Part shown: piece after piece, positions 4,171-52,002 of the stretch
How positions within the stretch are numbered: the first letter of the stretch is position 1
Layout: the number at the start of each line of letters is the position of its first letter
Origin: Candidatus Kapaibacterium sp.
Lineage (GTDB): Bacteria > Bacteroidota > Ignavibacteria > Kapaibacteriales > UBA961
DNA: 64,000 bases
Direction of reading: 5' to 3'
Assembly: GCA_017302855.1 (NCBI GenBank)
Contig: JAFLBY010000001.1
Coordinates: 9,208-73,207, forward strand
The notes under the pieces: generated by a model
Seen by the model: only the letters and a program-made list of their open reading frames with translations
What the model was told of the DNA's origin: nothing
Databases searched by the model: none
Position numbers and translations under genes: made by a program

Positions 4171-4182
4171 TCTCTTAAAAAC

Positions 4183-4196
4183 GTTTCACGTGAAAC
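4183..4196. promoter_or_regulatory. Perfect 14-bp palindrome GTTTCACGTGAAAC immediately upstream of the mnmG start; a second copy lies downstream of mnmG
   Basis: Seen directly at 4183-4196 and 6065-6078, with a CACGTG core. Flanks extend to AAAAACG on the left copy and CGTTTTT on the right copy. Confidence 0.3.
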
Positions 4197-4205
4197 ACTT
4201 TGTTT

Positions 4206-6062: not shown

Positions 6063-6064
6063 TT

Positions 6065-6078
6065 GTTTCACGTGAAAC
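6065..6078. promoter_or_regulatory. Second copy of the GTTTCACGTGAAAC palindrome (mnmG 3' end / 7 nt before the next start codon)
   Basis: Identical 14-mer followed by GTTTTTAT. Could equally be a weak terminator hairpin. Confidence 0.3.
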
Positions 6079-6084
6079 GTTTTT

Positions 6085-8704: not shown

Positions 8705-9443
8705 GAATCACCTCTTCAAAAACATCACTAAACTCATAAAGACCTTGTTTGCCAACGATCCATCGTGCTGCCATTAGTGCGCCTCTTGCAAAACCATCTC
8801 TGTTTTTTGCAGAATGTGACAGAGTTATTGTGTCGCAATCACTGTCAAATGATAATGTGTGCTCACCAATCACAGAACCCATTCTCTGAGACGATACATG
8901 AAGTTCATGAGGGAGAATATGGCGACCATTTACGGACTCAGTACATAGAACCGTTTTTGATTTAAATTCATCTAACACTATATTTGACAAAGATATAGCT
9001 GTTCCTGAAGGACTATCTAATTTGTGACGATGATGGGATTCATGTAAAGAGACATCATATATTTGGCTTTGATAAGCAAGCCGGCTTAACAAACTCGTCA
9101 TCGTGAAAAGGATATTCATACCTATTGAGAAGTTTGAACCATAGATAACACTTCCTTTTCCTTTTGCAACGATATCTTGTACTACCGATAGAGAATCATA
9201 CCATCCGGTCACCCCTAAAACTAATGGTGTATTGTGAGCAACAGCATATTCAATATGAGATAAAGCAGCAGAAGGAGCAGAAAAGTCAATCAGAACATCA
9301 ATATTTGACAAATCTTTATTTTTCAACAAGTTATAAATATCAAATTTTTCTACGATTGAAAGCGAAAAAGAATCTGAAAGTCGCTCCAATTCTTTCCCCA
9401 TTTTCCCATAACCAATCAAACCGACCCGTGTTGGATGTTCCAT
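8697..9443 (-). CDS. dapB: 4-hydroxy-tetrahydrodipicolinate reductase DapB
   Basis: N-terminal RVGLIGYGKMGKEL Rossmann fold. Diagnostic ESHHRHKLDSPSGTA motif. Confidence 0.8.
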   Translation of the reverse strand: MEHPTRVGLIGYGKMGKELERLSDSFSLSIVEKFDIYNLLKNKDLSNIDVLIDFSAPSAALSHIEYAVAHNTPLVLGVTGWYDSLSVVQDIVAKGKGSVIYGSNFSIGMNILFTMTSLLSRLAYQSQIYDVSLHESHHRHKLDSPSGTAISLSNIVLDEFKSKTVLCTESVNGRHILPHELHVSSQRMGSVIGEHTLSFDSDCDTITLSHSAKNRDGFARGALMAARWIVGKQGLYEFSDVFEEVIRV

Positions 9444-9445
9444 AC

Positions 9446-10126
9446 TTACTCCTCATTTTTCTTAGAATGTTGCACCTTAACTACATTACCATCAACAAGT
9501 TCAAAAAGTGCGTCAGTGTGTTTAACAAATGTGTTTCTATTGAAGGTAAACACCATAACCCCTTTTTTTTCAGGCATATACTTACTAACTATATCAAAGA
9601 AAACATCAGAAGATTTTGAGTCTAAGCCTATAGTAGGTTCATCAGCAAGAAGAAAATCAGGCTCAAAAATCGTTGCTTGGATAAGAGATAAAAGTTTCAA
9701 CTCACCAAAAGACACTTCATAAGGAAACTTTGAGCGCAAATGACTTAGCTCATACTCGGAGAGAATATCCATAGTCCTCTTTCTCGACTCATTTTCCTTC
9801 ATTCCGCAGACAAAAAGTGGTATCATGATATTTTCTTCAATAGTATAATGATGAGAGAATGCATTAGATTGACGAACAATACCTAATTTGCGTCGAAGTT
9901 CGCGTCTTTGCGACAGTTTCATAACTTTGGTACTTTGACCGTTAATATATGCTGTTCCTTGAGATGGTAATTTATCGCCTAGCAATAACTCAAACAACGT
10001 TGATTTACCGGCTCCCATGGCACCCTCGACAACAGTAAAACCATGTTCAGGAAACACCATTGAAAGCGAATCAATGACCGGTAGAACATCAAACATATAC
10101 GACACGGAACGGAATTCAAACTTCAT
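9446..10126 (-). CDS. FtsE-like ABC ATPase
   Basis: Degenerate Walker A (GAMGAGKST), ABC signature region, Walker B (LLADEPTIGLD); 226 aa. No adjacent permease gene. Confidence 0.5.
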   Translation of the reverse strand: MKFEFRSVSYMFDVLPVIDSLSMVFPEHGFTVVEGAMGAGKSTLFELLLGDKLPSQGTAYINGQSTKVMKLSQRRELRRKLGIVRQSNAFSHHYTIEENIMIPLFVCGMKENESRKRTMDILSEYELSHLRSKFPYEVSFGELKLLSLIQATIFEPDFLLADEPTIGLDSKSSDVFFDIVSKYMPEKKGVMVFTFNRNTFVKHTDALFELVDGNVVKVQHSKKNEE

Positions 10127-10137
10127 AATATAATGAC

Positions 10138-11295
10138 ATGAATAGATTTACAAACTTACTTAGTAACTGGAACAATAAACCCCAATACATCGTTGGTATC
10201 ATGACCGGAACATCTTTAGATGGTATAGACACCGCATTGTGCCGACTTCAAACCATTGATAATTCAATCACAATAGAACTATGCCACTTTATGTGTTCGG
10301 AATACCCAACTACAATGAAAGAGAACATAGTTACTTTGTTAAATGAACCAGCACCAATATCTATGTATAGCCATATACATCATGAACTTAGTAGAGTCTA
10401 TGCACAATGTATAAGAGACCTATGCACAAAGTCCAAATATGATATGAACTCAATTTCTGCAATTGGTATTCATGGACAAACTCTCTGGCATGATCCGCGA
10501 CAGAAAAACTGCACATTGCAAGCCGGCAATGGAGAAGTTCTTGCAAAAATACTATCTATCCCTGTAGTAAGTGATTTTAGAAGTGCCGATGTTGCACTTG
10601 GAGGTACGGGTGCTCCCCTGGTGCCAATATTTGACAAAGAATATTTTTCGTCCGATACCGATACGAATATAGCAATCAATATAGGAGGTATGGCAAATAT
10701 AACAGTGTTGCCACCTCGTGATTCACAAACTCCTATTGTTGCATGCGACACAGGTCCCGGCAATGTTCTCATAGACGCTCTTTGCATGAAATATTACAAT
10801 ATTCCTTTCGACAACAATGGAGAATATGCACGTAATGGCTTCATAATTCATGAGATGCTACAAGAGCTAAAAAGCCATTTATTCTATCGTACTCCCCTGC
10901 CAAAATCAACCGGACGAGAATTTTTTGGTCAAGACTATGCGGACTATCTCTGCAAAACATACGCAAATTATCCCCCTAATGACCTAATTCGCACAGTCAC
11001 AGAGCTTACTGCATGGCACATAACCGACCATATAGCAAGATTATCAAATAATCCCGGCACAATGATAGTTGCAGGCGGCGGTAAACACAACCTGTTTCTT
11101 ATGAAGAGATTGAAAGAAAATATGCCTCAACTTTCTCTGTGTTCCTCAGAATCATTCGGCATAAACAGCGATGCCAAAGAAGCTATGTGTTTTGCTTACC
11201 TTTGTTATAGAACATTATCTGGTTTACCATCCAATATTCCATCCGTCACAGGAGCATCGCGAGAAGCCATACTCGGTTCAATTTCCTTGCCTTAA
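10138..11295 (+). CDS. anmK: Anhydro-N-acetylmuramic acid kinase AnmK
   Basis: YIVGIMTGTSLDGIDTAL N-terminus typical of AnmK; 385 aa. Confidence 0.8.
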   Translation: MNRFTNLLSNWNNKPQYIVGIMTGTSLDGIDTALCRLQTIDNSITIELCHFMCSEYPTTMKENIVTLLNEPAPISMYSHIHHELSRVYAQCIRDLCTKSKYDMNSISAIGIHGQTLWHDPRQKNCTLQAGNGEVLAKILSIPVVSDFRSADVALGGTGAPLVPIFDKEYFSSDTDTNIAINIGGMANITVLPPRDSQTPIVACDTGPGNVLIDALCMKYYNIPFDNNGEYARNGFIIHEMLQELKSHLFYRTPLPKSTGREFFGQDYADYLCKTYANYPPNDLIRTVTELTAWHITDHIARLSNNPGTMIVAGGGKHNLFLMKRLKENMPQLSLCSSESFGINSDAKEAMCFAYLCYRTLSGLPSNIPSVTGASREAILGSISLP

Positions 11296-11732
11296 CAATG
11301 TGTAAGGCTGTGTATTTTATCAACACGTTTTTGATGACGACCACCTTCGAATTCAGTGGCTAAAAATGTTGTAACTATATCTTTTGCCTCGTCATACGAT
11401 AAAAACCGAGCACCCAAGGTTACAACATTACAATTATTATGCTGTCGGCACAAGGCAGCTTGTTCCTTAACAAGGCAATTAGCTGCACGTATCCCCTTCA
11501 CTTTATTGGCAGTAATACAAACACCTATGCCGCTGCCGCAAACAAGTACAGCACAATCACATTCATTGTTTTCGACCAAGTGACAAGCTGCAACTGCATA
11601 ATCGGGATAGTCTGCCGATTCTGAAGAATATGTTCCACAATCATTCACATTGTGACCTTGTTCTACTAAAAAAGAGACAATAAGATTTTTTAATTCATAA
11701 CCGGCATGATCGGCACCAATGGCAATATTCAT
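11292..11732 (-). CDS. rpiB: Ribose-5-phosphate isomerase B
   Basis: MNIAIGADHAGYELK...VLVCGSGIGVCITANKVKGIRAA. RpiB/LacA/LacB family, 146 aa. Confidence 0.85.
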   Translation of the reverse strand: MNIAIGADHAGYELKNLIVSFLVEQGHNVNDCGTYSSESADYPDYAVAACHLVENNECDCAVLVCGSGIGVCITANKVKGIRAANCLVKEQAALCRQHNNCNVVTLGARFLSYDEAKDIVTTFLATEFEGGRHQKRVDKIHSLTHC

Positions 11733-11797
11733 CGTAAGTCCTTGGAAAAATAAAAAAAACTACAGATAACTCAACTATATTAACTCACTTGAAGATA

Positions 11798-12031
11798 TTT
11801 TCCACAAAATTGCACACATTATGCTCATTTGGAGTAAAAAACACCATAATCTGTGGGGTAAACTCTCACTTTTTTTGTGGAGAACATAACTTTATCCACT
11901 TTTATGTGTAAAACATTACAATTATTCACAAAGTTTTCCACACAAATTTGGGGGGAAATTTTCTTTCTTTGTCTTTTGTACATAATCGCTTATATTACTT
12001 TTATCCACATTAGTTTTCCACATTTCCACAG
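11798..12031. promoter_or_regulatory. Cluster of DnaA-box-like 9-mers in an AT-rich intergenic region (candidate oriC or DnaA-regulated site)
   Basis: TTTTCCACA (11798), TGTGGGGTA (11852), TGTGGAGAA (11876), TTATCCACT (11892), TTATTCACA (11922), TTTTCCACA (11934), TTATCCACA perfect (12001), TTTTCCACA (12014), TTTCCACAG (12023). Confidence 0.35.
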
Positions 12032-12096
12032 GAGATAAAGTATTTTTACTATAAAAATTTAACTATTACTTAATACAAGAATAACTTTTTGCTCAT

Positions 12097-12756
12097 TTAC
12101 TCTACAAAAGTAGGAACAAAAGGAAAGCGATGAGATAAAAAACAAAGTAACTGACCATCATGGATTTCAATAGAACACATTGTCGCAGATGCTCTGTTGC
12201 GCGCCCCTTCCCTTTCCCCCAAACGAAGAAGTTCTTTGTGTAGATTCCAAACAAATCCATGTAAACTAAGAGTGCAAGATGGTTGAGGAATAAGAGAAAT
12301 AAGCTCATTTTTCACAGTGGAAAATGAAATACTTTGCATTACAGGAATAGCATAACGCTCTCCATCAAGTATAGTGAGGGACATAAGAGGACAAAATTTC
12401 ATGAACACACTCCAATTATTAAGTGTATGGTCAAGTTCCCCTCCGTGAAAGCCACAAATCAAAATGTGGTGATAATTGTTTTCAATGCAGAAACGCAAAG
12501 TTTTCTCAAAATCATTAGTCTCTTGTTCAGGAAGGTGGACAATATGGCTTTGAGGAAAAGAGGTATATACTTCTGTGCTGTCCATATCGCCAATAATAAC
12601 AGCCGGAAAGAAGCCTAACCTCTGAAGTTGTTTGGAAGCACCGTCGGCAGCAATAAAAGGTGCCGGATGCAGTGCCGCAAGTATATGAGGTGCTGGCATG
12701 TCTCCATTTAAACAAACAACGCAATCAAAAGGATTATTGTAAAACTCTAATCTCAT
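12097..12756 (-). CDS. Thiamine diphosphokinase
   Basis: AADGASKQLQRLGFFPAVIIGDMDS and ICGFHGGELDH motifs resemble TPK. 219 aa; 4-nt overlap with the upstream channel gene. Confidence 0.5.
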   Translation of the reverse strand: MRLEFYNNPFDCVVCLNGDMPAPHILAALHPAPFIAADGASKQLQRLGFFPAVIIGDMDSTEVYTSFPQSHIVHLPEQETNDFEKTLRFCIENNYHHILICGFHGGELDHTLNNWSVFMKFCPLMSLTILDGERYAIPVMQSISFSTVKNELISLIPQPSCTLSLHGFVWNLHKELLRLGEREGARNRASATMCSIEIHDGQLLCFLSHRFPFVPTFVE

Positions 12757-13820
12757 GGTTCATCAGGCAAAAAAGGAGGTTCTGAAGTAAGTAAATCAGG
12801 TAATTGTACATGATTGGTGTTTCCTATTCTATCTAAGTGAAGTAAAGTAAATTCTGAATCACGATCACGTTCATACATTGGGGTAAACTTATGTCCCCAT
12901 AAGAACTCATGCCATTTATATGAGTGAGTCTTTTGTACATTTTGCGAAAAAGTATTGTCAAAACCATTCAATAATATTAAAAACTCTGCATCAGATTCCT
13001 CAAATTCTTGTTGAGTGATACCGTAAAGAGGACTTGACTCATCCACAGGGTGATTGATAGTCCATCCTATAGTGAGGAAATTTACCGTATCGTATTCCAA
13101 AGGTAAACGGTAAAATTTACGGGAAGATATGCCATTGTTGATTTCCGTTCTTGCTAAAGTAACCTGTGCATGAACCTCGGATAGCAGATTGTTTTTGGCA
13201 TTGGCAACCCTAAACATAAAACCTCTTCCGGATTTGTGAGGGGCAACTATTGCCCGGGGACTAAAAATCAGATGAGCTACAGGACGCGAAAAACGTCCAT
13301 AGAGAAGTCCGGTGACAAGGGCAAACGATAACAAACCAAGGAAAGACTCGATAGCTGCCACACTTTGCGATAGAAAACCTCGTGGTGATATAGATCCATA
13401 TCCTACGGTTGTTATCGTGTGGGAGCTAAAGAAAAACGCCTCCATAAAATGCTCAAACATTGTCTGAGCACGTGATCCTTCCAAATACTCCGTGCCTATG
13501 AAAAAGTACAAAAGAGCAAACACGGTATTGATAATGACATAAAAGCCCGCCACAAATGCTAAAAACGTGGTCCACGAGGCTGTCATCAACCAATGGTATG
13601 AATCAAATATCTGAAAAAAGGGAATACCGGTTCGATGGATGAGAAATGTACCGTTTTTATCCATAAAACGGGTACCTTGATTGCCTGTTTGTGAACCAAA
13701 TCCAAGATTATCGGTAGTGTGAGCGCGGCGGTGTTTTTTTTTGAATGGGTTGGATACTTTCATAGTAAACCGAGTATGTTTTTCATAAGAATGAACAATC
13801 CTTGGTGTTTGTAACGTCAT
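12753..13820 (-). CDS. Inward-rectifier-type potassium channel (KirBac-like)
   Basis: Two TM helices flank a pore helix with the selectivity filter TITTVGYGSI. A cytoplasmic Ig-like C-terminal domain follows. 355 aa. Confidence 0.65.
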   Translation of the reverse strand: MTLQTPRIVHSYEKHTRFTMKVSNPFKKKHRRAHTTDNLGFGSQTGNQGTRFMDKNGTFLIHRTGIPFFQIFDSYHWLMTASWTTFLAFVAGFYVIINTVFALLYFFIGTEYLEGSRAQTMFEHFMEAFFFSSHTITTVGYGSISPRGFLSQSVAAIESFLGLLSFALVTGLLYGRFSRPVAHLIFSPRAIVAPHKSGRGFMFRVANAKNNLLSEVHAQVTLARTEINNGISSRKFYRLPLEYDTVNFLTIGWTINHPVDESSPLYGITQQEFEESDAEFLILLNGFDNTFSQNVQKTHSYKWHEFLWGHKFTPMYERDRDSEFTLLHLDRIGNTNHVQLPDLLTSEPPFLPDEP

Positions 13821-15627: not shown

Positions 15628-16500
15628 ATGAATATTGAATTTGAACAAAAAGTATTTCCGAATCAAAGACAATCAGAGCAAGAATTGGCTGAAATAGCAT
15701 TGCATATTCGCAGGGATATTATTAAATCACTTGCTCTTGCGCAATCAGGTCACAGCGGAGGGCCTCTTGGTTCCTCTGATATTTTTGCAACAATGTATTT
15801 TGGCGGATATATGCGCTACAAACCCGAAGATATGCAATGGGAAGGGCGCGATAGATTTGTATTAAGTGCTGGTCATATGTGTCCGGTGATGTATGCTACT
15901 TTGGCAAATGCAGGGTGTTTTCCCAAAGCAGAATTAGCAACATTGCGCAAATATAATACACGTTTACAAGGTCACCCGGGACGTGATATGGGATTACCCG
16001 GTGTGGAAACATCTTCCGGGTCTCTCGGTCAAGGAATATCTATTGCTGTCGGTATGGCAATGAGTGATAAATTATTGGATAAAAATGATCGCAGAGTATT
16101 TAGTTTAACCGGCGACGGTGAATTACAAGAAGGAAGTGTGTGGGAAGCTGCTATGGCTGCTTCACATTTTAAATTAGATAATTTCTGCTGGATTATTGAT
16201 AATAATGACTGTCAAATTGACGGTAGAATAAAAGAAGTTTTGGATGTATATCCGATAGATGAAAAATGTAAATCATTCGGGTTTGATACCGTGGTTGTTG
16301 ATGGTCATAATTTTACGGAATTAATGGGTGCTTTTGATAGGTTCTTAGAAAATCAAAAAAATAACACAGGCAAACCAACAGCTATTATTGCAAAAACATA
16401 TATGGGACACGGTGTGTCATTTATGAATGATAATTATAAATGGCATGGTATGCCGCCATCGGTAGAACAAGCTCAACAAGCATTGGCTGAATTGGTGTGA
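15628..16500 (+). CDS. Transketolase, N-terminal (TPP-binding) subunit
   Basis: GHSGGPLGSSDIFATMYF, GHMCPVMYA and GDGELQEG motifs; 290 aa. Confidence 0.85.
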   Translation: MNIEFEQKVFPNQRQSEQELAEIALHIRRDIIKSLALAQSGHSGGPLGSSDIFATMYFGGYMRYKPEDMQWEGRDRFVLSAGHMCPVMYATLANAGCFPKAELATLRKYNTRLQGHPGRDMGLPGVETSSGSLGQGISIAVGMAMSDKLLDKNDRRVFSLTGDGELQEGSVWEAAMAASHFKLDNFCWIIDNNDCQIDGRIKEVLDVYPIDEKCKSFGFDTVVVDGHNFTELMGAFDRFLENQKNNTGKPTAIIAKTYMGHGVSFMNDNYKWHGMPPSVEQAQQALAELV

Positions 16501-17135
16501 CAATGACCATAAATATGAGAAATATCGTATTTGTTTTTGCCGTGATAATGTTGCTATCGTCATGTGCAGAAGAAAAAAAACCGGTGTACAGGGAATCGCC
16601 TGCCGTAGCAATACAGCCGCCCTCATCTATGCAGCAACAAACAACACAAAACAAAGAAAAAACAAAAATTGTTAAAGACGATTTTTCTCCTGTTACGGGA
16701 AAAGAATTGATGAAATGTATGCCTACGGTGGTTGGTGGTGCAAAAATTCTTACACCATCAACGGGAAGATCTGAAACAGCGTATGGTTATGAAACCAGAG
16801 CTGATATAGAAGTGATATATGGCACAGGTGTAACTGTGCGTATAGGAATAACCGATTATGCGGGACATTATTATGCCATACGTGAGCGCTATGAAGTGCC
16901 ACGTTCGGAAATAGGTGTTGAAATGACATCGTTAACATTAGGAGCGGGCAAAGGTTTTCAAATGGTAAACATCTACGAGAAATCAGCATCTATTCGTTTT
17001 GCTGTTTCTCAACGTTTTGGGATAGATATTGAAGTTCTTAAATATACCCAAGATTTTGGCTCACCTTCAAAAGTGCTGGAATTATTGGATTTGCAGTTAT
17101 TAGAAAAAATAGCACAAACAAACGTAAAAAAATAA
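16497..17135 (+). CDS. Lipoprotein of unknown function, inserted between the two transketolase subunit genes
   Basis: Lipobox LLSSC. Start overlaps the tkt-N stop (ATGA). Confidence 0.4.
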   Translation: MTMTINMRNIVFVFAVIMLLSSCAEEKKPVYRESPAVAIQPPSSMQQQTTQNKEKTKIVKDDFSPVTGKELMKCMPTVVGGAKILTPSTGRSETAYGYETRADIEVIYGTGVTVRIGITDYAGHYYAIRERYEVPRSEIGVEMTSLTLGAGKGFQMVNIYEKSASIRFAVSQRFGIDIEVLKYTQDFGSPSKVLELLDLQLLEKIAQTNVKK

Positions 17136-17147
17136 TAAGGAATTTGT

Positions 17148-18152
17148 ATGCAAGAATTAACATTACTCGGTTCTAAACCCACGCGCCACGGTTTTGGTGA
17201 AGGTTTGGTTACACTCGGTGAGAGACATGACAATGTCGTGGTTTTAGGTGGTGATATCACTGGTTCGGTTATGACATCTTTATTTAAAGATAAATTTCCC
17301 GACAGATTTTTTTCTATTGGTATTGCAGAGCAAAATGCAACCACAATAGCCGCCGGTTTGGCTTTAAGCGGAAAGATTCCGTTTTTTGCAAGTTATGGTG
17401 CTTTTTGTGCTTTGCGTAATGCCGATCAATTACGTATTTCCGTTTGCTATAATGAAGCGAATGTGAAAATTGGTGGTGGTCATGCCGGTATTTCCGTTGG
17501 TCCGGACGGTGCCACACACCAGGTTTTGGAAGAGGTTGCGTTTTTGCGTACTTTACCGCACATGACCATGATTGTGCCTTGCGATTATCTGGAAGCAAAA
17601 AAAGCAACGATAGCGATGGGTGAAAAAGTAGGTCCGGCATATATTCGTTTTGGACGCTCACCTGTGCCGCTTTTTACCACAGAGGATACACCCTTTGAAA
17701 TAGGAAAAGCACAAGTGTTCCGCGAAGGCAATGACATTGCTTTGATTGCTAATGGGGCTTTGGTATGGGAATCCATGCTTGCTGCCACAGAATTAGCAAA
17801 AAAAGGAATACAAGCACGTGTTATTAATTGTCCGTCAATTAAACCATTCGATGTAGAAACGGTTGTGAATGCTGCGCGTGAATGCGGTGCTATTGTTACT
17901 GCCGAGGAGCATCAAGTTCATGGTGGGCTTGGAGGAGCTGTTGCAGAAGTCACTGCAAAAAATGCTCCCGTGCCGGTTGAGTTTGTAGGAGTGAGAGATA
18001 GTTTCGGAGGTAGCGGCGAACCGGAAGAGTTGATGGTAAAATTCGGGCTGACATGGAAAGAAATATATGCTTCTGCATTAGTGGCAATGGAACGTCGAGA
18101 CAAAGGAAGCAGCGGCTATCGCCAAGTGAAAGATGTAGAGCAGTTTAGTTAG
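17148..18152 (+). CDS. Transketolase, C-terminal (pyrimidine-binding) subunit
   Basis: 334 aa with a transketolase Pyr domain and C-terminal domain. Confidence 0.85.
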   Translation: MQELTLLGSKPTRHGFGEGLVTLGERHDNVVVLGGDITGSVMTSLFKDKFPDRFFSIGIAEQNATTIAAGLALSGKIPFFASYGAFCALRNADQLRISVCYNEANVKIGGGHAGISVGPDGATHQVLEEVAFLRTLPHMTMIVPCDYLEAKKATIAMGEKVGPAYIRFGRSPVPLFTTEDTPFEIGKAQVFREGNDIALIANGALVWESMLAATELAKKGIQARVINCPSIKPFDVETVVNAARECGAIVTAEEHQVHGGLGGAVAEVTAKNAPVPVEFVGVRDSFGGSGEPEELMVKFGLTWKEIYASALVAMERRDKGSSGYRQVKDVEQFS

Positions 18153-22170: not shown

Positions 22171-25100
22171 TTAATTCTTTATCAATGTTTGTGATAGTTG
22201 TTTGCCCTGTTCTGTTATGATGTTGATAATATAATTCCCCGTTGCTAAGTTCTCCGTGTTAATTGGTTTAGTATATGACGAATTTCCTTGTGAGACGATT
22301 CTCCCCTCTACATCAATTATTGTATAGCTGAAATTACCTTCAAGATTATCAGGGGAACTTACGGTAAATGAATGTGATACAGGATTGGGAAATACTTGAA
22401 CGAGATTATCTTGTACATCAAAATCATGCAGTGCGCTTATGACCGCTATATTAAAATCTTTCCAAACAGGTGTCTTTTTATATACATCTTGAGTTCCTTC
22501 GGGTACATATAAAATTACATTCGGTATAGTAACATTTTCAAAAACATTGGCGTTTATTTCTAAAGGCATTTTCCAATGTACCGTTACCGATGCCAATGCC
22601 GAACAATCAGAAAATGTTCTGTCACCAATGCTTGTCACAGACTGGGGAATGTTTACCGAAGTCAAGCCCTTGCACCCTGCGAATGCCTCTTCTTCAATAC
22701 CTGTAACATCATACGTAATAGAGGCATTTGTTATAGATGTCGAAACATTTCCATTGCCTGAAATTGATGTGGAGTTTACTGTTGCCGGAATATTTGCATT
22801 GCCAATAAACGAAGAATTTTTTGCCACCGCCACAGTAGGTGGAATTAATGATGTCACTGTGTAAGAGATATCATCATTTGTAAATTTTTGCCCAAAAACT
22901 TCGATTTTAAAATCTTTCCAAACGGGCGTAGTGCTGTAACGTTTTCTGGCTGTATCCGGTACATATAATGTTACTGCCGATAATATTACATCGTTAAAAA
23001 TATTGGCATTTATTGCCAAGGGGGTTATCCAATTCACGGTTACCGATGTCAAACCGGCACCTGCGAATGCTTGTTGCCCAATATTCATTACAGAATTAGG
23101 GATGTTAATCGAAGTCAAACTGCTACACTTTGCAAATGCACTTGCACCAATACTCTTAATAACATTAGGAATGCTTACCGATGCCAAATTGCTACACTCT
23201 GCGAATGTAGTTGCACTAATAATCGTTACAGAGTTAGGAATTCTTACAGAAACCAAGCCCTTACAATTTTTGAATGCGGCTGCACCAATACTCGTTACTG
23301 AATTTGGAATGCTTACAGAAGCCAAGCCCGTACAATTTTCAAATGCATTAGATCCAATTCTCGTTACGGAATATGTAATTGATGCATTTGTAACAGTCGC
23401 CGGAATGTTTGCACTTCCGACAAAGGAAGTATTCAATCCTACCTCTACAGTAGGCGGACTTGATGATGTAATTGTATAATTGATGTCATTAACAGAGAAA
23501 GTTTGTTTAATTACTTGTATTTTAAAATCCTTCCAAACAGGTGTAGTTCTATAAGCGTTTTGAGTTTCGATCGGCACATATAAAGTGTCCATTGATAATG
23601 GACCTGTAAATACATTGGTACTGATTTCCAAAGGTTTTGTCCAATTAACAGTGACCGATGTCAAGCCGGCATCTAAGAACGCACCTTCTTTAATATACTT
23701 AACAGTGTTAGGAAAGATTACTGACCTCAAACTGGAACAACCTTTGAATGCATCATAACCAATACTAATAGCAGATTTAGGGATATTTACAGAATGTAAG
23801 CGAAAACAGTTTTCGAATAAGCCGTCACCAACCCTCGTCACATGATCAGGAATATTGATCGAAGTCAATCCGTCACAACCGGAGAATGCATAATCACCAA
23901 TACTGATAACCGCATCAGGAATATTAATCGAAGTCAATCTGTAACAACCGGCAAATGCACCGTCACCAATACTTGTAACCGCATCAGGAATATTGATCGA
24001 AGTCAATTCTCTACAACCGGCGAATGTACTTTCACCAATACTTGTAACTGAAATAGGAATACTGATTGAACTCAACCTCCAACACTCTGCGAATACACGG
24101 CTTTCAATAGTTGTGATCGAATTAGGAATGGAAAGAGAAGTCAATCCGGTACAATATGCGAATGTACTTTCACCAATACTTGTAACTGAAATAGGAATAT
24201 TGATTGAAGTCAATCTGGTACAACTGTGGAATGCACTGTTTCCAATAGTGGTCACTGAATTAGGAATGGTAAGAGAAGTCAATCCGGTACAATATGCGAA
24301 TGCACTGTTTCCAATATTCGTCACCGAATTACCCAAAGTAACCGAAGTTAAGCCTGTACAATGTGCGAATGCAGATTCACCAATATTCGTCACCGAATTA
24401 CCCAAAGTAACCGAAGTTAAGCCTGTACAAACATTAAAAGCAGCCTCACCAATATTCGTCACCGAATTACCCAAAGTAACCGAAGTTAAGCCTGTACAAT
24501 GTGCGAATGCAGATTCACCAATATTCGTCACCGAATTACCCAAAGTAACCGAAGTTAAGCCTATACAATGTGCGAATGCAGATTCACCAATATTCGTCAC
24601 CGAATTACCCAAAGTAACCGAAGTGAATCCGGTACAATTTTCGAATGCTGATTTTCCAATAGTATTTACCGAATGAGGAATAATAATTGAAGTCAAGCTG
24701 GAACAACGTGAAAAAGCGTTATCACCAATACTCAATACTGAATTACCCAAAGTAACCGAAGTGAATCCGGTACAATTTTCGAATGCTGATTTTCCAATAG
24801 TTTTTACTGAAGAAGGAATAATAATCGAAGTCAAGCTGGAACAATCTAAGAAAGCGGCATCACCAATACTCGTTACTGAATTACCCAAAGTAACTGAAGT
24901 CATACTGTCGCAACCTTTGAATGCATAATCACTAATCTTGATAACAGAATTAGGAATGTTCACCGAAGTCAAACCTGTACAGTTTTGGAATGCATAACCT
25001 CCAATACTTGTGACCGAACTCGGAATGATAACCGAAGTCAAACCGGAACAACCTGAGAAAGCGGCATAACTAATACTCATTACCGAATTACCAATGTTCA

Positions 25101-26040
25101 CCGAGGTCAGATCTTTACAATTGTTGAATACATTGTCACCGATATATGTAACAGAATTGGGAATATCTAATGAAGTTAATCCGGCACTTGCGAATGCATA
25201 CGCCCCAATAGTTGTCAAGGAATTAGGAAGGTTAATAGATTTTAATCCGGCTCTTACGAATGCATACCTCCCAATAGTTGTGACCGAACTCGGAATATTT
25301 ACTGAAGTCAATCGTTGGCATTGTTCGAATACACTTTCTTCAATAGTTTCTACCGAATTTGGAATGTCTATTGAAGTCAAAGCGGTACAATATGCGAATG
25401 TACGGCTTCCAATAAATGTTACCGAATTAGGAATACTTACAGAAGTCAAGCTGATACAATTTATAAACGCACTCCCAGCAATAGTTGTGACCGAATTAGG
25501 AATGCTGATTGAACTCAACCTCCAACACTCTGCGAATACACGGCTTTCAATAGTTGTGATCGAATTAGGAATGGTAACTGAAGTCAAGCCGGTACAACCT
25601 GAGAAAGCGGCATCACCAATACTCATTACCGAATTAGGAATGGTAATTGAAGTCAAACTTGAACACCCGTAGAATGCACGATTTCCAATATTTTTTACCG
25701 AATTAGGAATGTTTGCTAATCTCAAGCTTTCACAATTAATGAAGGCATGATCACTAATATTTTTTACCGAATTAGGAATGATAACATATATCAATGCTTT
25801 GTTATATGCGAATGCACTACTTCCAATACTCGTTACACCATACGTAATTGATGCATTTGTTACAGTAGCCGGAATATTTGCCATGCCGGTAAAAGAATAA
25901 TGCGTAGCTACTTCTACAGTAGCCGGATTCATTGATGTTACTTTATAATTAATGCCATCAACTTTGAATTCTTGCCCAAAGACATTGATGTGGGACATAA
26001 TGATTGCTAACAAGGCAAGGCAAAAAATTTTCATATTCAT
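22171..26040 (-). CDS. Very large BspA-type leucine-rich-repeat surface protein with a T9SS C-terminal sorting domain
   Basis: 1289 aa. Signal peptide; dozens of IPNSVTSIGxxAFxxCxxLTSV repeats; three FxVDGINYxVTS modules. C-terminal VFPNPVSHSFTVS...GNYIINIITEQGKQLSQTLIKN matches the Por/T9SS CTD. Confidence 0.8.
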   Translation of the reverse strand: MNMKIFCLALLAIIMSHINVFGQEFKVDGINYKVTSMNPATVEVATHYSFTGMANIPATVTNASITYGVTSIGSSAFAYNKALIYVIIPNSVKNISDHAFINCESLRLANIPNSVKNIGNRAFYGCSSLTSITIPNSVMSIGDAAFSGCTGLTSVTIPNSITTIESRVFAECWRLSSISIPNSVTTIAGSAFINCISLTSVSIPNSVTFIGSRTFAYCTALTSIDIPNSVETIEESVFEQCQRLTSVNIPSSVTTIGRYAFVRAGLKSINLPNSLTTIGAYAFASAGLTSLDIPNSVTYIGDNVFNNCKDLTSVNIGNSVMSISYAAFSGCSGLTSVIIPSSVTSIGGYAFQNCTGLTSVNIPNSVIKISDYAFKGCDSMTSVTLGNSVTSIGDAAFLDCSSLTSIIIPSSVKTIGKSAFENCTGFTSVTLGNSVLSIGDNAFSRCSSLTSIIIPHSVNTIGKSAFENCTGFTSVTLGNSVTNIGESAFAHCIGLTSVTLGNSVTNIGESAFAHCTGLTSVTLGNSVTNIGEAAFNVCTGLTSVTLGNSVTNIGESAFAHCTGLTSVTLGNSVTNIGNSAFAYCTGLTSLTIPNSVTTIGNSAFHSCTRLTSINIPISVTSIGESTFAYCTGLTSLSIPNSITTIESRVFAECWRLSSISIPISVTSIGESTFAGCRELTSINIPDAVTSIGDGAFAGCYRLTSINIPDAVISIGDYAFSGCDGLTSINIPDHVTRVGDGLFENCFRLHSVNIPKSAISIGYDAFKGCSSLRSVIFPNTVKYIKEGAFLDAGLTSVTVNWTKPLEISTNVFTGPLSMDTLYVPIETQNAYRTTPVWKDFKIQVIKQTFSVNDINYTITSSSPPTVEVGLNTSFVGSANIPATVTNASITYSVTRIGSNAFENCTGLASVSIPNSVTSIGAAAFKNCKGLVSVRIPNSVTIISATTFAECSNLASVSIPNVIKSIGASAFAKCSSLTSINIPNSVMNIGQQAFAGAGLTSVTVNWITPLAINANIFNDVILSAVTLYVPDTARKRYSTTPVWKDFKIEVFGQKFTNDDISYTVTSLIPPTVAVAKNSSFIGNANIPATVNSTSISGNGNVSTSITNASITYDVTGIEEEAFAGCKGLTSVNIPQSVTSIGDRTFSDCSALASVTVHWKMPLEINANVFENVTIPNVILYVPEGTQDVYKKTPVWKDFNIAVISALHDFDVQDNLVQVFPNPVSHSFTVSSPDNLEGNFSYTIIDVEGRIVSQGNSSYTKPINTENLATGNYIINIITEQGKQLSQTLIKN
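24311..24655. repeat. Five near-identical 69-bp tandem repeats inside the LRR gene (one 23-aa LRR unit each); more diverged copies continue to ~24900
   Basis: The unit ccaatattcgtcaccgaattacccaaagtaaccgaagttaagcctgtacaatgtgcgaatgcagattca recurs at 69-nt period. Confidence 0.6.
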
Positions 26041-40336: not shown

Positions 40337-40567
40337 CTACCTCACCACCATAAACAGAGCTTTTTGTCCTGTGGCGGGAATGCGTGCACAATACATACCT
40401 GTCTGCGATCTGCTTATGTCTATCGAATGTTCATATCCCTGATACATAAGCGAACCCTGCATATCGGCAATGAAGACCAAGGCATTATCTGTACCGGTAG
40501 GCGTGTGGTTGTGATGTGTTGGTATTTTAAACTTCTTGGTCATGGAGTTTGTTGGAATTAATTTCAA
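40337..40567 (-). pseudogene. Orphan T9SS C-terminal sorting-domain remnant (3' fragment of a disrupted secreted-protein gene)
   Basis: The 76-aa ORF ...ALVFIADMQGSLMYQGYEHSIDISRSQTGMYCARIPATGQKALFMVVR matches the T9SS CTD pattern. It has no upstream cargo domain, and its 5' end overlaps the STAND gene stop in another frame. Confidence 0.35.
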
Positions 40568-43500
40568 ACATCGATAACTCCAAGAAATTTATAAAACTTT
40601 CATAGAATGAATAGAAATTAGTTTCTATTTTATAATCATTTATAAGTTTCAGTGTGTTTCCGGGAAAAAAATACAAACTATGAAAATAGTTGATAGTGTT
40701 CACTTTTCCAACAATAGCATTAAATAAAATTGGTTTTATGCTTCTTTTAACTTCTTTTTTGGGAAACAACTGAAATAGTTTTAAATCCGACAACGAAGAG
40801 TGTAATCCATCAGAATAAGATGCTACTTCATCTGGCTTTAATTTCAGTTCGGAAATTATTTTTTTGTCATTTATAGTAAGTATTCCGTTGTTTAATCGTG
40901 ATTGACTATCTTGTCTGTATGAGTTGTTGTGATCTGAATATTCAGTATAAGGAATTCCAATGTTCTTAAGAGACTTTGTTTTTTTATTCCGTTTTGAAAT
41001 ACGAACTCTGAATTTGTTAACTTCTAATATGTCTCTAAACTGATTACATCTATTTGAACTGAGAATGTTTTGAATATCATTAAAATCTATTTGCCTATCA
41101 TATATGTTATGTTGAAGTAATCTTTCTATTGATAGATTAAAAATACTATCTGGAAAACAGTTAATATGATTTGTAGGTAAACTAAACCAAGATACTTCTA
41201 ATTTGTTAATATCAAAATACTTTACCAAGATGTCAATTATACTCGTGGAATGTTGTTCAATATATTCTTCTAAAAGATGACGTACTCCCTTTTCTGATAA
41301 AGTCTGAATAGATGCTATTAGTTTAATAGATTCTATTTCTTTAACAAGACCCTTTTCTTCAAAAACTGAAAGTATGGTGGGGATAAATAGAACAGAATAA
41401 TCCTTTCTTTGATAGTATTTTGTCCAAAAAGTAGAAATGCTCGAGATATCAATGGTTTTATTTAAATGCAAGTTCAGACGAATATAATTTAATATTTCAA
41501 TCCATAAGTCAAAACTACCCAATTGACTGTTTTTAATGATAAAGTCTGCTAGTGATAAATTTAAGTAATCGTTTGTTCTTGCAACATGGCCAAGTGCCAG
41601 TATGTTGCGTCTCGCATCTTTTAATATAGACTTTGCAAATGCAGCGGGAATACGTTTCTTTTCAAGAAATTCTCGTAAATATAATAAGGACTCTTCATCT
41701 TCAGTATAAAAGTATTTATTAATAGTCATTTTTAAGTCTAAATAATCAGATTGTAGTTTTTCGTGGATGAATAAATTTTCCAACACAAAGGTCATTTTTT
41801 CGACGAATTCATAGTTGTCGTTAGATTCTATCAAAGCTTCAATTTCTATATTAGATAGTGCAGATTTGTGTGCGTTAAAAAAGGTATCTTCTTTTGTTGT
41901 TTCGTCTAATAAATTTTCAAAAAAACTGTTTGTATTATAATGGTCATTACTAGAAAGATTAAGCAACAATGAGATATTCCCCGTTTTAATAAAGTAAAAC
42001 ATACCAAAAAGATAGTCTGAGCTTGTAAAGTCTTTCTCTGTATATCCATGAAATAACAATGATTTTATATAGGTGTATAAAAATTTATTGTTAGTTGAAA
42101 TATAATCCCTTGATATTATATTGATAATTAATGATAAATCATAATAATCTTTCACATCTAAATCATTGGGTGAAAGTTCAAACAATGATCCTCTAAGTTG
42201 TCCATAGAATGATTGGATAGCCTCAAAATCTACAGTACCACTAACAAGAACTTTAAACTCAGAAATGTTTGAGAATCTGAGAATGATTTCTCGTTTCATT
42301 TCCATATCTAGATAGAAGAAATCAAACCTTGTAAGAAATGCAACTTCTGAGTTAAGGATTGAGTTGTAAACAATCATTTTTACTGTCTTTTGTCGTTCAG
42401 AATAATCAATGTTTTGGTTACGTAAATAAGTATTAAAGCTGTCGTGCAATAAAGAAACTCTGTTTAGCTTCTTTTCAAATAAATAAGGGTACTCACTTAT
42501 AAATTCTGAAACACTAACTCCTAATTCTTTACCTAAAAATTTTTCTATTTCATGGTGCATGATAAAAGAACGACAACAAAGAAACAATGTCAATAAAGAT
42601 TTTGTGTTTACCTTGTCTTTAAAAATTTCATCATAATACTCGTCTATAGTCTTTAACGTATTTAATTCAGGTAGATTGTTGTGTTCTTTATAATGTTCTG
42701 CCAAATATTTGACTAAAATAGGATAACCATCTGTAATCGAATATATGCGACTACAAACATCGTAATCGGTAATGTGAAAAAGTTTATCAAGAACCTTTTT
42801 TGTTTGCTCCTTGTTCCAATTAATAAGTTCATGTTTACTCCACTCCCATTGATGTTTCAATGGTCTGGTTAAAACTATTGTTTTACACTTTGTTTGTAAT
42901 TTTTGGATAAAGTCAATGATTTTTTTTAACTCTTTGCTATCGTAGTTTTCAACGTGGTCAATCCCGTCAATTATGACTATTTTGTTTACCTCCCATAATT
43001 TTGATAAAACTTCATTCTCATTCCTGTTAACTTGATCATTAAACAGTTTCTTCGAAAAGTCAAAGATAAAATTTGAAAACTTTAGCCTTTGATTATACTC
43101 TTTATCTTGGCTTGAAATCCAAAATCTGTAAATTATATTGTTTGGATATTCTTGAGTCAGACTATTGACAAGATGGCTTTTGCCAACTCCAGGTTTGCCT
43201 TCTATTACTATAATATTTTCAACAAATAGATGATTTCTTCCGACATCAATTGTTTGTTCGGTCAAATTGGTATCGAAAACGAGAATTGTTGGCAAATCCT
43301 TTCTCGCTATTCTAAATTTCCGCTCATCTAAACATGAATTAAAAAATCTGTTTATAATAAGTTCCCTTTCTTGGTTCAAATTGTATAAATTGGAAATTCT
43401 CTCATCAACATTTTCTCTGTTTAAAGAAACAATGTAAACATTGTTTGAAATATATGCAGGAATTCCGAATATTTCACAATTTGGCGAAATCTCGATTTGT

Positions 43501-43781
43501 TTAAAAAATATAATATTAGTGAATTGTGACAATAAATGTTTTTTGTTTTTTATAATTACTGAGTTTTCTTTGAATCGAAGAGAGTTAAGAGAAATGTCAT
43601 CAATATCTTTAATCTGGATGCAAAATTTTTCGTTAGTAGATGTTACTATTAAATCATCAAAGTGATTGTTAGCGTTTACTTCCATTTCAATTGAATCAAT
43701 ACTACGTTCAACATCCATTTTTGCTAAAAACAAAGATGTTATTTGTTTTTGATATGTGTATCCTGTATAAGCGTTTTTCAT
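40527..43781 (-). CDS. STAND-class P-loop NTPase (NACHT/NB-ARC-like), Avs-like candidate antiviral sensor: N-terminal PD-(D/E)xK-like domain plus long C-terminal helical-repeat region
   Basis: Walker A GKPGVGKSHLVNSL, Walker B KIVIIDGIDHV and TIVLTRP motifs. ~190-aa N-terminal domain with FDDLIV...EKFCIQIK (D...QxK). ~700-aa alpha-helical C-terminal half. Confidence 0.7.
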   Translation of the reverse strand: MKNAYTGYTYQKQITSLFLAKMDVERSIDSIEMEVNANNHFDDLIVTSTNEKFCIQIKDIDDISLNSLRFKENSVIIKNKKHLLSQFTNIIFFKQIEISPNCEIFGIPAYISNNVYIVSLNRENVDERISNLYNLNQERELIINRFFNSCLDERKFRIARKDLPTILVFDTNLTEQTIDVGRNHLFVENIIVIEGKPGVGKSHLVNSLTQEYPNNIIYRFWISSQDKEYNQRLKFSNFIFDFSKKLFNDQVNRNENEVLSKLWEVNKIVIIDGIDHVENYDSKELKKIIDFIQKLQTKCKTIVLTRPLKHQWEWSKHELINWNKEQTKKVLDKLFHITDYDVCSRIYSITDGYPILVKYLAEHYKEHNNLPELNTLKTIDEYYDEIFKDKVNTKSLLTLFLCCRSFIMHHEIEKFLGKELGVSVSEFISEYPYLFEKKLNRVSLLHDSFNTYLRNQNIDYSERQKTVKMIVYNSILNSEVAFLTRFDFFYLDMEMKREIILRFSNISEFKVLVSGTVDFEAIQSFYGQLRGSLFELSPNDLDVKDYYDLSLIINIISRDYISTNNKFLYTYIKSLLFHGYTEKDFTSSDYLFGMFYFIKTGNISLLLNLSSNDHYNTNSFFENLLDETTKEDTFFNAHKSALSNIEIEALIESNDNYEFVEKMTFVLENLFIHEKLQSDYLDLKMTINKYFYTEDEESLLYLREFLEKKRIPAAFAKSILKDARRNILALGHVARTNDYLNLSLADFIIKNSQLGSFDLWIEILNYIRLNLHLNKTIDISSISTFWTKYYQRKDYSVLFIPTILSVFEEKGLVKEIESIKLIASIQTLSEKGVRHLLEEYIEQHSTSIIDILVKYFDINKLEVSWFSLPTNHINCFPDSIFNLSIERLLQHNIYDRQIDFNDIQNILSSNRCNQFRDILEVNKFRVRISKRNKKTKSLKNIGIPYTEYSDHNNSYRQDSQSRLNNGILTINDKKIISELKLKPDEVASYSDGLHSSLSDLKLFQLFPKKEVKRSIKPILFNAIVGKVNTINYFHSLYFFPGNTLKLINDYKIETNFYSFYESFINFLELSMFEINSNKLHDQEV

Positions 43782-47969: not shown

Positions 47970-49034
47970 TTAGGCTTCAATCAATTCATTTACTTCTTCA
48001 TTCATTACTTCTTCATTCATTACTTCTTCATTCATTACTTCTTCATATACACAACTGTTTACCAAAGCATTTGCAATGTGCCACATTAAGACAGGTGGAA
48101 CAGCATTGCCAATTGCTCTGTATTGTCTATTCTCTGAAACACTGTCTAACGTAAATGTTAGCGGAAAAGATTGAATGTTTGCTGCTTCTCTTGGTGTAAA
48201 TCTTCTGTAACGTTCACCAACCATTAATACAGGGTCCGTTCCATTCAAACTGACTTTTGCAAGATGTGCACTGATTGTGTTACAGGGCTGTTCTAAATCT
48301 TGTACTCGTCCTTTGTTCATCTTTTCTCTTACTCGCAACATTCCATCAATGGCTCTTTGGCTGAAAAACCATTTTTCATCTTTGTGAGCTTCTTTATCAA
48401 TAACCTGTTTTAATTTTACTTTTGAACCGTTCAATGTGTTTGGTCTTGGAAATCTAAAATTAAAATAATCGTCAAAATCTCTGAAGCCAACAATAAAAAT
48501 GCGTTCGCGTTTTTGAGGAATACCAAATTCTGACGCATTTAACAGCTTAAAATGAATGTGATAACCTGCTTTCTCAAATTCGTTTACAATCATAGGGAGT
48601 GCTTTTCCTTTGTTTGCAGAAAGTAAACCTTTAACATTTTCTCCAATGAAAAAACGTGGCTGTTTTTCTTTCAGAATTTTTACCATCTCAAAAAACAATT
48701 TTCCTCTATCGTCTTTGTAGCCTAATCTGGGTGGGTTCTGTGCACTGATAGAAAATGATTGACAAGGAAAACCACCTAACAGAATATCGTGGTCAGGAAC
48801 TTCGTTTGGTATGATAGCTCTAACGTCTTTTATCTCACATTTATGCTCAAAATTATCGTTGTAAATTTTTGTTGAGTAACTATCGTTATCGACGGCATAC
48901 ACAACCTCAAAAGGTAAGGCAGCGTAATGATTGTCAAGAAAATCGAAATTTCCTTGAATACCTAAATCCATTCCTCCACAACCACAGAAAAGAGATGAGA
49001 CCTTTAATTTGTTATTTCCAGCAGTTTGTGCCAT
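47970..49034 (-). CDS. DNA (cytosine-5)-methyltransferase (M2 of the RM operon) with a C-terminal EEVMN peptide-repeat tail
   Basis: Motif I LFCGCGGMDLG, motif IV GGFPCQSFS, ENV motif. C-terminus (EEVMN)x3-4. Confidence 0.85.
   Translation of the reverse strand: MAQTAGNNKLKVSSLFCGCGGMDLGIQGNFDFLDNHYAALPFEVVYAVDNDSYSTKIYNDNFEHKCEIKDVRAIIPNEVPDHDILLGGFPCQSFSISAQNPPRLGYKDDRGKLFFEMVKILKEKQPRFFIGENVKGLLSANKGKALPMIVNEFEKAGYHIHFKLLNASEFGIPQKRERIFIVGFRDFDDYFNFRFPRPNTLNGSKVKLKQVIDKEAHKDEKWFFSQRAIDGMLRVREKMNKGRVQDLEQPCNTISAHLAKVSLNGTDPVLMVGERYRRFTPREAANIQSFPLTFTLDSVSENRQYRAIGNAVPPVLMWHIANALVNSCVYEEVMNEEVMNEEVMNEEVNELIEA
47985..48050. repeat. 15-bp tandem repeat (ttcattacttcttca, 3 perfect copies plus 1 variant) at the 3' end of the methyltransferase gene
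   Basis: Seen directly; in-frame, 5 aa per unit. Confidence 0.6.
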
Positions 49035-50446: not shown

Positions 50447-51480
50447 AAGTATTTCATAATTTCATTTGCTAACACAGCTGCTAATATTGGAGGAACAGCA
50501 TTGCCTACCTGTTTGTATTGGCTCGTTTTACTTCCTAAAAAAATGAATGAATCTGGAAAGGATTGTATTCTCGCACTTTCTCTAACAGTAGGCACACGAT
50601 TGTATTTGTAATGAAAATGATGTCTGTGTCCTGTGTCAATAGTAAAACTTGGCTTCTTGCTGTTTAGTCTCGTCCAAGCAATATTTACATTCCTTGTTTT
50701 TCGTAATTCTTTAGGCAAGTCTTTATAGTTTCCGCCATCGGGAACTAATGAAATAATATGTGTTGTTTGCTCACTATGGTTAGTTGTTTCGTGATTGTAA
50801 ATACCCTTTGACCCTTCTCTAATTAATCTTTGATAATGAGATTTAGGTTTAGTTGTATATTTTGTCCCGTTTTCTAACGAATTTTTAGGCAAATCTGAAA
50901 TTGCATCTTTCGTATTTATAGGGGTTTTAGTTGTTGGTTCTGGGAAAACAAACTCTTTGTTGCTCTTTGTTCCAATAAAGAAAGCACGTTTTCTATTCTG
51001 CGGAACTCCATAATCAGAGGCTAATAAAATTTTGTAAACTACGGTGTAACCAAGTTTTTCAAAATCACTGAGAATTGTCTCTTTTACAATACCTTTTCCC
51101 ATAGAAATAATGTTTGGCACATTTTCCATTACAAACGCCTTAGGCTTGTAAAAACTAACAAAACTCAAAAATGATTTGTAAAGTTGATTGCGCTCGTCAT
51201 CAATTATTCTTTTTCCTGCAATAGAAAAACCTTGACAAGGAGGACCTCCAATAATCACATCTATACTTTTTATTCCTGTTTTTTTTGAAATTTCTTTCGC
51301 TGTCTCCGTAAATAAATCGGCTACAATTCCTTTTGCATTTTTGTGAGTGTTTTCAAAAGTTACAATCGCATCTTTCCAATTGTCAATTCCCAAAAGTACA
51401 TCATAGCCAGCTTCGATGAATCCATAAGAAAGTCCACCGCAGCCACAAAACAAGTCTATTACTGTTGGCTTCTTTTTCAT
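50443..51480 (-). CDS. DNA (cytosine-5)-methyltransferase (M1 of the RM operon)
   Basis: IDLFCGCGGLSYGF, GGPPCQGFSIAGKR and ENVPN motifs. Confidence 0.85.
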   Translation of the reverse strand: MKKKPTVIDLFCGCGGLSYGFIEAGYDVLLGIDNWKDAIVTFENTHKNAKGIVADLFTETAKEISKKTGIKSIDVIIGGPPCQGFSIAGKRIIDDERNQLYKSFLSFVSFYKPKAFVMENVPNIISMGKGIVKETILSDFEKLGYTVVYKILLASDYGVPQNRKRAFFIGTKSNKEFVFPEPTTKTPINTKDAISDLPKNSLENGTKYTTKPKSHYQRLIREGSKGIYNHETTNHSEQTTHIISLVPDGGNYKDLPKELRKTRNVNIAWTRLNSKKPSFTIDTGHRHHFHYKYNRVPTVRESARIQSFPDSFIFLGSKTSQYKQVGNAVPPILAAVLANEIMKYL

Positions 51481-51499
51481 TTTCTAACTTGATAATGTC

Positions 51500-51843: not shown

Positions 51844-52002
51844 ATTTAACAATAGTTTTTGGTTAAACAATCTCTATTGATTCTGCTCTCCTGTGTTCTA
51901 TCACCTATGTTTGTCTAACTGTGCTGTTCTTTCGGATGACCAATCTATTCATATTATACCCCTCAATAACCATTTGCCCCAGAAAGCGGCTCATTTCTAT
52001 TA

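Follow-up and report, generated by a model that had tools for sequence, protein, structure and literature searches.

Replication origins (oriC) of bacterial chromosomes are typically adjacent to dnaA, but this adjacency is not a defining trait, and gidA (mnmG) is a classic marker gene of origin neighbourhoods. Read directly from the sequence, oriC of E. coli lies between mnmG/gidA and mioC and presents, in this order, the 13-mer DNA unwinding element (DUE), a 13-nt spacer, and the R1 box (TGTGGATAA). E. coli is not known to have parS sites. Clusters of DnaA boxes are also well known outside of origins. Among them, datA and the DnaA-box clusters of B. subtilis are not known to sit at the strand-skew switch or to have an unwinding element. 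Some plasmid origins carry DnaA boxes too. Dual origins are rare in bacteria. At oriC of B. subtilis, the BUS comprises DnaA-box#6/#7, DnaA-trios, and an AT-rich region, and the rule used to search for it asks for at least 3 NAN trinucleotides, separated by a spacer of no more than 16 nt from a box that has 2 mismatches or fewer (PMC8287927). In Melioribacter roseus, GC-skew transitions and DnaA boxes led to the prediction of oriC in the 303-bp gap between dnaA and dnaN (PMC3534657). In Elizabethkingia meningoseptica, Ori-Finder predicted an oriC 1.87 Mb away from dnaA (PMC8994065).

We studied a stretch of 64 kb, hereafter called the window, from an uncultured relative of 'Ignavibacteria bacterium UBA2373' and 'Candidatus Kapabacteria'. 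An earlier note on this DNA had singled out a strongly AT-rich gap of ~360 bp between rpiB and the tpk/KirBac genes as a candidate origin. The gap measures 364 bp (window 11733-12096), its flanks were confirmed by Pfam, and its GC content is 28% vs ~38% for the window. Judging from the sequence, the region from ~11798 to 12096 is very probably the chromosomal oriC. The note had delimited the element at 11798-12031; the location is right, and the element is slightly larger, reaching ~12096 to take in the unwinding element. The immediate surroundings of the gap are the following:

11292-11732, minus strand: rpiB (Pfam LacAB_rpiB, 1e-57), on the side of the boxes and transcribed away from the candidate origin
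11733-11797, minus strand: putative rpiB leader with a probable promoter, at the edge of the origin, including the conserved block CAAGTGAGTTAATATAGT
12097-12756, minus strand: tpk, thiamine pyrophosphokinase (Pfam TPK_catalytic, 1e-19)
12753-13820, after tpk: gene of a KirBac-type channel

Both tpk and the KirBac gene are transcribed towards the candidate origin. Transcription of tpk enters the gap on the side of the unwinding element, which the tpk stop codon abuts, and terminator prediction gave none on the minus strand from tpk to the boxes. On the other side, the block CAAGTGAGTTAATATAGT upstream of the rpiB ATG is conserved in close species, and a scan for the sigma-70 consensus gave no match in the leader (11733-11797). 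Several other interpretations of the DNA in the gap were rejected. Searches with Rfam (at the gathering thresholds) and ARAGORN gave nothing in the whole window, which dismisses a known RNA or riboswitch in the gap. Two small ORFs (11825-11983 and 11877-12038) and a 46-aa gene call (L099/L100) were discarded, being in variable spacer with 1-nt indels. A terminator-like hairpin at 11853-11869 is weak and lies on the plus strand, where no gene ends.

The closest locus in the genome collection is that of 'Ignavibacteria bacterium UBA2373', whose rpiB protein is 86% identical. The sources label the homologues of tpk 'Candidatus Kapabacteria bacterium' or Ignavibacteria, and proteins identical to those of the window were found on metagenome contigs from activated sludge and bioreactors. 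We compared the window with four relatives, in which the tpk protein is 80%, 75%, 73%, and 52% identical to that of the window. The five species have in common the gene order transketolase, pepF, KirBac, tpk, gap, rpiB, anmK, ABC ATPase, and dapB, onward to gidA and flagellin. The transketolase of the window is split (15628-18152), its N-terminal and C-terminal halves being encoded by two genes on either side of an unannotated 212-aa ORF. With tpk and rpiB next to it, the candidate origin is surrounded by a small group of genes of pentose-phosphate and thiamine metabolism.

The gap contains nine putative DnaA boxes and one other conserved motif (L104 is the most distant relative):

11798-11806, plus strand: DnaA box TTTTCCACA, nearest to rpiB; conserved in 5 species, perfect TTATCCACA in L104
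11854-11863: conserved 10-mer TGGGGTAAAC (GTTTACCCCA on the minus strand), not a DnaA box; invariant in 4 close species, absent in L104
11876-11884, minus strand: DnaA box TTCTCCACA, in opposite orientation; conserved in 5 species, TTTTCCACA in L104
11892-11900, plus strand: DnaA box TTATCCACT; conserved, perfect TTATCCACA in L104
11905-11913, minus strand: weak DnaA box TTTTACACA with 2 mismatches; position conserved, TTATACACA (1 mismatch) in L104
11922-11930, plus strand: DnaA box TTATTCACA, in tandem with the box at 11934; invariant in 4 species, box-like TTATCCAAC with a 1-nt indel in L104
11934-11942, plus strand: DnaA box TTTTCCACA; conserved in 5 species
12001-12009, plus strand: perfect DnaA box TTATCCACA, opening a series of three co-oriented boxes; unchanged in 4 species, CTACCCACA in L104
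12014-12022, plus strand: DnaA box TTTTCCACA, in the middle of this series; relatives have TTTTCCACT or TTATCCACT
12022-12030, plus strand: DnaA box ATTTCCACA with 2 mismatches, closest to the unwinding element and sharing one base with the previous box; TTTTCCACA and TTATCCACC (1 mismatch) in relatives

The earlier note had listed nine 9-mers, all of which are present: TTATCCACA at 12001, TTATCCACT at 11892, TTTTCCACA at 11798, 11934, and 12014, TTATTCACA at 11922, TTTCCACAG at 12023, TGTGGAGAA at 11876, and TGTGGGGTA at 11852. Seven of them have at most one mismatch. As for the remaining two, shifting TTTCCACAG by one base to the left gives the better reading ATTTCCACA, and TGTGGGGTA (11852-11860) is not a credible DnaA box, having at least 3 mismatches and being lost in the most distant relative. 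The list was also incomplete, as it missed the conserved box TTTTACACA on the minus strand. The conserved 10-mer TGGGGTAAAC overlaps the weak terminator-like hairpin of the plus strand and could be the site of some accessory protein.

The density of boxes, described in the note as typical of oriC or of a strongly DnaA-regulated promoter, is well above chance. Seven boxes with at most one mismatch from TTATCCACA are found within 225 bp (11798-12022), whereas no other 300 bp of the 64 kb contain more than 2 and the largest cluster in 200 first-order Markov simulations of 64 kb had 3. In the whole window there are 34 such boxes, for 23.4 expected. The low GC content of the gap (28%) could by itself suggest a chance cluster in AT-rich DNA, or the origin of an integrated plasmid or mobile element using DnaA boxes. 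Yet, 5000 simulations with the gap's own composition gave 0.16 boxes on average and never more than 3, to be compared with the 7 observed. Iteron-type plasmid origins have iterons and an adjacent rep gene. Here, the DnaA boxes are the only repeats in the gap, and neither a rep nor a mobility gene is near it; the neighbours are housekeeping genes, in an order conserved in five species. We give almost no credit to a chance cluster or a plasmid origin.

Alignment of the five gaps, from the window species and the four relatives, revealed a clear footprint. The nine boxes are kept in place and in orientation in the five species, and the fraction of invariant columns is 84.5% in the boxes (71 columns) vs 23% in the rest of the gap (293 columns). 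The length of the spacers is near constant among the four closer species, and their sequence is essentially randomised in L104. Hence, boxes were conserved while spacers diverged. The substitutions within boxes exchange accepted variants, e.g., TTTTCCACA for TTATCCACA or TTATCCACT for TTATCCACA, and such box-for-box swaps are what selection for DnaA binding predicts. The DnaA-box consensus of the lineage, as deduced from these sequences, is TT[A/T]TCCACA. Beyond these species, there is no box cluster near rpiB in a more divergent locus of Ignavibacteria (L071), and a contig of Kapabacteria that ends 189 bp after tpk (L103) has no boxes in that stretch and different genes upstream. The arrangement seen at the rpiB–tpk gap is therefore not universal in the class.

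Origins vary in position across the wider group, from the dnaA–dnaN gap in M. roseus (PMC3534657) to a place far from dnaA in Elizabethkingia (PMC8994065), and dual origins were predicted in some bacteria (bioRxiv 10.1101/2025.08.05.668638). One could therefore envisage that the gap is one of two chromosomal origins, or a relic or recently displaced oriC that coexists with a dnaA-linked one. But a relic would not have kept nine boxes under purifying selection in five species, nor would it sit at the current skew switch (see below), and nothing found here suggests a second origin. Such scenarios seem very unlikely to us, and an oriC in use remains our preferred reading of the gap. It has a further element next to the boxes:

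12034-12083, strand not applicable: putative AT-rich DNA unwinding element, proposed from its low stability, conservation, and geometry

In a nearest-neighbour scan of the 64 kb, only one 50-mer is less stable than this element, whose dG is -49.2 kcal/mol, relative to a mean of -64.4 (sd 4.5), and whose AT content is 82-88%. The four closer species have it almost unchanged, and in the fifth it is still rich in AT. The three co-oriented boxes (12001-12030) point at the element, which starts a few bases after them, directly 3' of the boxes when these are read as TTATCCACA. On the minus strand, the order is the AT-rich element, a spacer of ~9-10 nt, TGTGGAAAT, GTGGAAAA, and TGTGGATAA. A low-stability element is thus adjacent to the boxes, on the side and in the orientation that the DUE has relative to R1 in E. 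coli oriC. The minus strand also has a run of four NAN trinucleotides (5'-TAG TAA AAA TAC-3', from 12051 down to 12040), 9 nt away from the box at 12022-12030, the strand of the trios being deduced from the geometry. They formally satisfy the BUS rule, but in 85% AT DNA this pattern is expected by chance and almost uninformative.

Strand composition provides further evidence. The earlier note had proposed the GC skew as one check of its claim, and the minimum of the cumulative G-C curve of the window is at 12224, ~130 bp from the gap. It remains there when 8.7 kb are added on the left (contig NODE_444, L090), for a total of ~73 kb. In the 20.9 kb that precede the minimum the curve loses 785, and in the 52 kb that follow it gains ~1050. 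Because GC skew partly follows the coding strand, we computed it from third codon positions, with the plus strand as reference, for the genes of each strand:

Left arm: -0.22 in plus-strand genes, -0.10 in minus-strand genes, -0.150 pooled
Right arm: +0.17 in plus-strand genes, +0.12 in minus-strand genes, +0.139 pooled

The sign changes whichever the coding strand, and the two arms differ significantly (Mann-Whitney p = 1.6e-6 for 20 left-arm and 41 right-arm genes). There is an excess of G over C on the would-be leading strand, which fits an origin and not a terminus. Local skew reversals can also result from rearrangements. At the orthologous gap, no fewer than three of the four relatives show this change of sign too (values for the two sides):

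L096: -0.185 / +0.181, p = 0.009
L098: -0.204 / +0.178, p = 0.007
L099: -0.169 / +0.100, p = 0.027
L104: -0.132 / +0.098, p = 0.001

Most unrelated rpiB loci used as controls lack such a switch. Hence, the gap is at a GC-skew switch, locally, over ~73 kb. Other features speak against an origin. The T-A skew has no switch at the gap and its minimum is at 28934. Genes of the right arm are mostly head-on, with ~34% of the coding bases co-directional with a rightward fork, and the direction of tpk and the KirBac gene, towards the gap, is unfavourable too. Further along this arm, at 52000-55000, the GC content reaches 45-47% and the plus-strand skew is positive, even though the genes (a DUF2520/Rossmann-like protein and cysS) are on the minus strand.

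These results bear on another explanation, in which DnaA binds the gap for purposes other than initiation, either at a titration or reactivation site of the kind of datA, DARS, or the DnaA-box clusters of B. subtilis, or at a DnaA-controlled promoter of rpiB, the true origin being elsewhere, e.g., between dnaA and dnaN. The gap is indeed the upstream region of rpiB, with the DnaA box at 11798 lying ~65 nt from the start codon, beside the conserved block of the leader, and the origin of M. roseus was reported between dnaA and dnaN (PMC3534657). Against this, the skew switches at the gap in the window and in relatives, independently of gene strand, and a conserved element of low stability adjoins the co-oriented boxes in an origin-type geometry, whereas sites of the datA, DARS, or DnaA-box cluster type would be away from the switch and lack such an element. 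The parS sites and gidA described below point in the same direction, and nine conserved boxes far exceed what known DnaA-regulated promoters need. We therefore consider a non-origin locus unlikely. The box closest to rpiB may have a regulatory side role, which is compatible with function of the gap as oriC.

Genes and sites that are usual close to origins are found on the side of rpiB:

4182-4197: parS-like site CGTTTCACGTGAAACA, 1 mismatch, just upstream of gidA; conserved in L001, L096, L100, and L104
4200-6062, plus strand: gidA/mnmG (Pfam GIDA)
6064-6079: parS-like site TGTTTCACGTGAAACG, 1 mismatch, just downstream of gidA; conserved in relatives

Both parS-like sites are one mismatch away from TGTTTCACGTGAAACA, in a sequence where 0.49 sites with at most 3 mismatches were expected by chance, and are 6-8 kb from the gap. 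All relatives with contigs reaching so far have kept the arrangement parS–gidA–parS, with the sites at 9507/11389 in L001, 16682/18564 in L096, 10090/11972 in L100, and 16703/18577 in L104. The candidate origin is thus accompanied by gidA and its two flanking parS sites. An ssb gene is located ~2 kb to the left of the start of the window, i.e., ~14 kb from the gap. We failed to find dnaA, dnaN, gyrB, parB, or dnaB from -8.7 kb to +64 kb using Pfam on essentially all ORFs, precomputed gene tables, and a motif search, in agreement with the note, which had reported no dnaA, dnaN, or gyrB nearby. As the origin of M. roseus is reported between dnaA and dnaN (PMC3534657), a dnaA-linked box cluster may be present elsewhere in this genome, which speaks against our reading of the gap.

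The rest of the window has a few other regions worth mentioning. At 22171-26040 lies the gene of a BspA-type protein of 1289 aa, with leucine-rich repeats and a C-terminal sorting domain for type IX secretion. An island of low GC (40527-43781, ~29% vs 38%), probably acquired horizontally, encodes a 1084-aa protein whose sole Pfam match is weak (AAA_18). Another low-GC island (47970-51808) carries a restriction-modification system, with two C-5 cytosine methyltransferases, a BpuJI-like endonuclease with a NOV_C domain, and a small HTH (controller-like) protein.

Taken together, the box cluster, the purifying selection specific to the boxes, the conserved low-stability element, the strand-independent skew switch, and the parS/gidA neighbourhood argue for an oriC. 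The note had hesitated between an oriC and a strongly DnaA-regulated promoter, and the skew, the unwinding element, the parS/gidA sites, and the five-species footprint favour the former. DnaA binding, unwinding, and firing at the gap are proposed by analogy with E. coli and B. subtilis. DnaA would occupy the nine boxes of consensus TT[A/T]TCCACA, and the co-oriented boxes (12001-12030) would seed an oligomer of ATP-DnaA that extends onto 12034-12083 and melts this element of 82-88% AT. The distal boxes (11798-11942) would supply and stabilise further DnaA. Helicase loading would follow, after which forks would depart both ways. It is tempting to speculate that transcription of the flanking genes, away from the gap for rpiB and into it for tpk, modulates initiation in the way of gidA and mioC in E. 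coli.

The practical outcome is an origin annotation for a sludge lineage of the Kapabacteria/Ignavibacteria type that is uncultured and represented only by metagenomes. It can be used to orient assembled genomes and to estimate growth rates from read coverage (peak-to-trough ratio), and it comes with a lineage-specific consensus of the DnaA box. It also adds a data point on the evolutionary separation of the positions of the origin and dnaA in the Bacteroidota–Ignavibacteria group. The rpiB–tpk locus is one that standard origin predictors would call. The note had implied that an origin away from dnaA is a surprise, but this is already so in E. coli and was predicted in Elizabethkingia (PMC8994065). 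Since origins far from dnaA are already known, the annotation is solid but ordinary, and it does not change the understanding of how origins work.

Among the known systems, E. coli oriC resembles the gap in many respects. Neither is adjacent to dnaA, both have multiple DnaA boxes in the two orientations, and in both the boxes, when read as TGTGGATAA, have the AT-rich element on their 5' side, across a spacer of ~10-13 nt. The two also have gidA/mnmG in the neighbourhood and flanking genes transcribed into and out of the origin. On the other hand, the gap lacks the 13-mer GATC repeats and Dam sites, its flanks are rpiB and tpk, its boxes are more numerous and closer to the consensus, gidA is 5.7 kb away instead of ~110 bp, and there are parS sites nearby. 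Relative to the BUS of B. subtilis, the gap also has co-oriented tandem boxes that adjoin the unwinding region, distal boxes upstream, and a run of at least 3 NAN trinucleotides close enough to a box to satisfy the search rule of PMC8287927, a likeness of little statistical weight at 85% AT. However, it is not located between dnaA and dnaN, and its proximal boxes are differently spaced, with 4 bp between the first two and an overlap of 1 bp between the second and third, whereas the rule assumes gaps of at most 3 bp. With datA and the DnaA-box clusters of B. subtilis, the gap shares an intergenic cluster of high-affinity DnaA boxes away from dnaA, but it differs from them by its skew switch and unwinding element. 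M. roseus is a cultured member of the same broad Ignavibacteria/Chlorobi-related group and its origin was predicted from the same kind of evidence (PMC3534657). Yet, that origin is beside dnaA, and here there is neither dnaA nor dnaN from -8.7 kb to +64 kb.

There are also parallels in the Weeksellaceae (Bacteroidota), where the origin of Elizabethkingia was predicted far from dnaA as well (PMC8994065). In Chryseobacterium (L052, 9260-9991), a 732-bp AT-rich gap between pgk and rpiB, directly upstream of the latter, has 5 DnaA boxes. Within 5 kb, two parS sites, at 5045 and 6953, flank gidA, which is ~2.3 kb from the gap and ~3 kb from rpiB. Two other loci of Chryseobacterium/Epilithonimonas (L040 and L077, ~9450-9730) also have a gap with DnaA boxes upstream of rpiB, and there are 4-5 boxes across these loci. 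These gaps are probably the oriC of Weeksellaceae, although the 20-kb loci have no clear skew switch. They differ from ours by belonging to another phylum-level lineage, with rpiB only ~56% identical, by having gidA on the other side of the gap, and by having pgk, not tpk, as the second flank. Several loci from bins of Flavobacteriales and Bacteroidales, and another one labelled Akkermansia (together L004, L010, L014, L031, L038, L073, L076), have a local cumulative G-C minimum at ~9400-10070, just upstream of rpiB (start at 10001). The DNA upstream is AT-rich and has no canonical DnaA-box cluster; these loci may be origins with divergent boxes or a coincidence. The box gaps of Chryseobacterium/Epilithonimonas and the skew minima of the other Bacteroidota are a hint of an old link between the origin and rpiB. 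We tentatively raise the possibility, on which we would not insist, that Kapabacteria and parts of Bacteroidota share an old placement of oriC directly upstream of rpiB, with parS–gidA–parS nearby. If this were true, some of these origins of Bacteroidota would lack canonical DnaA boxes, and the dnaA–dnaN origin of Melioribacter would mean that either dnaA or the origin moved separately within the superphylum.
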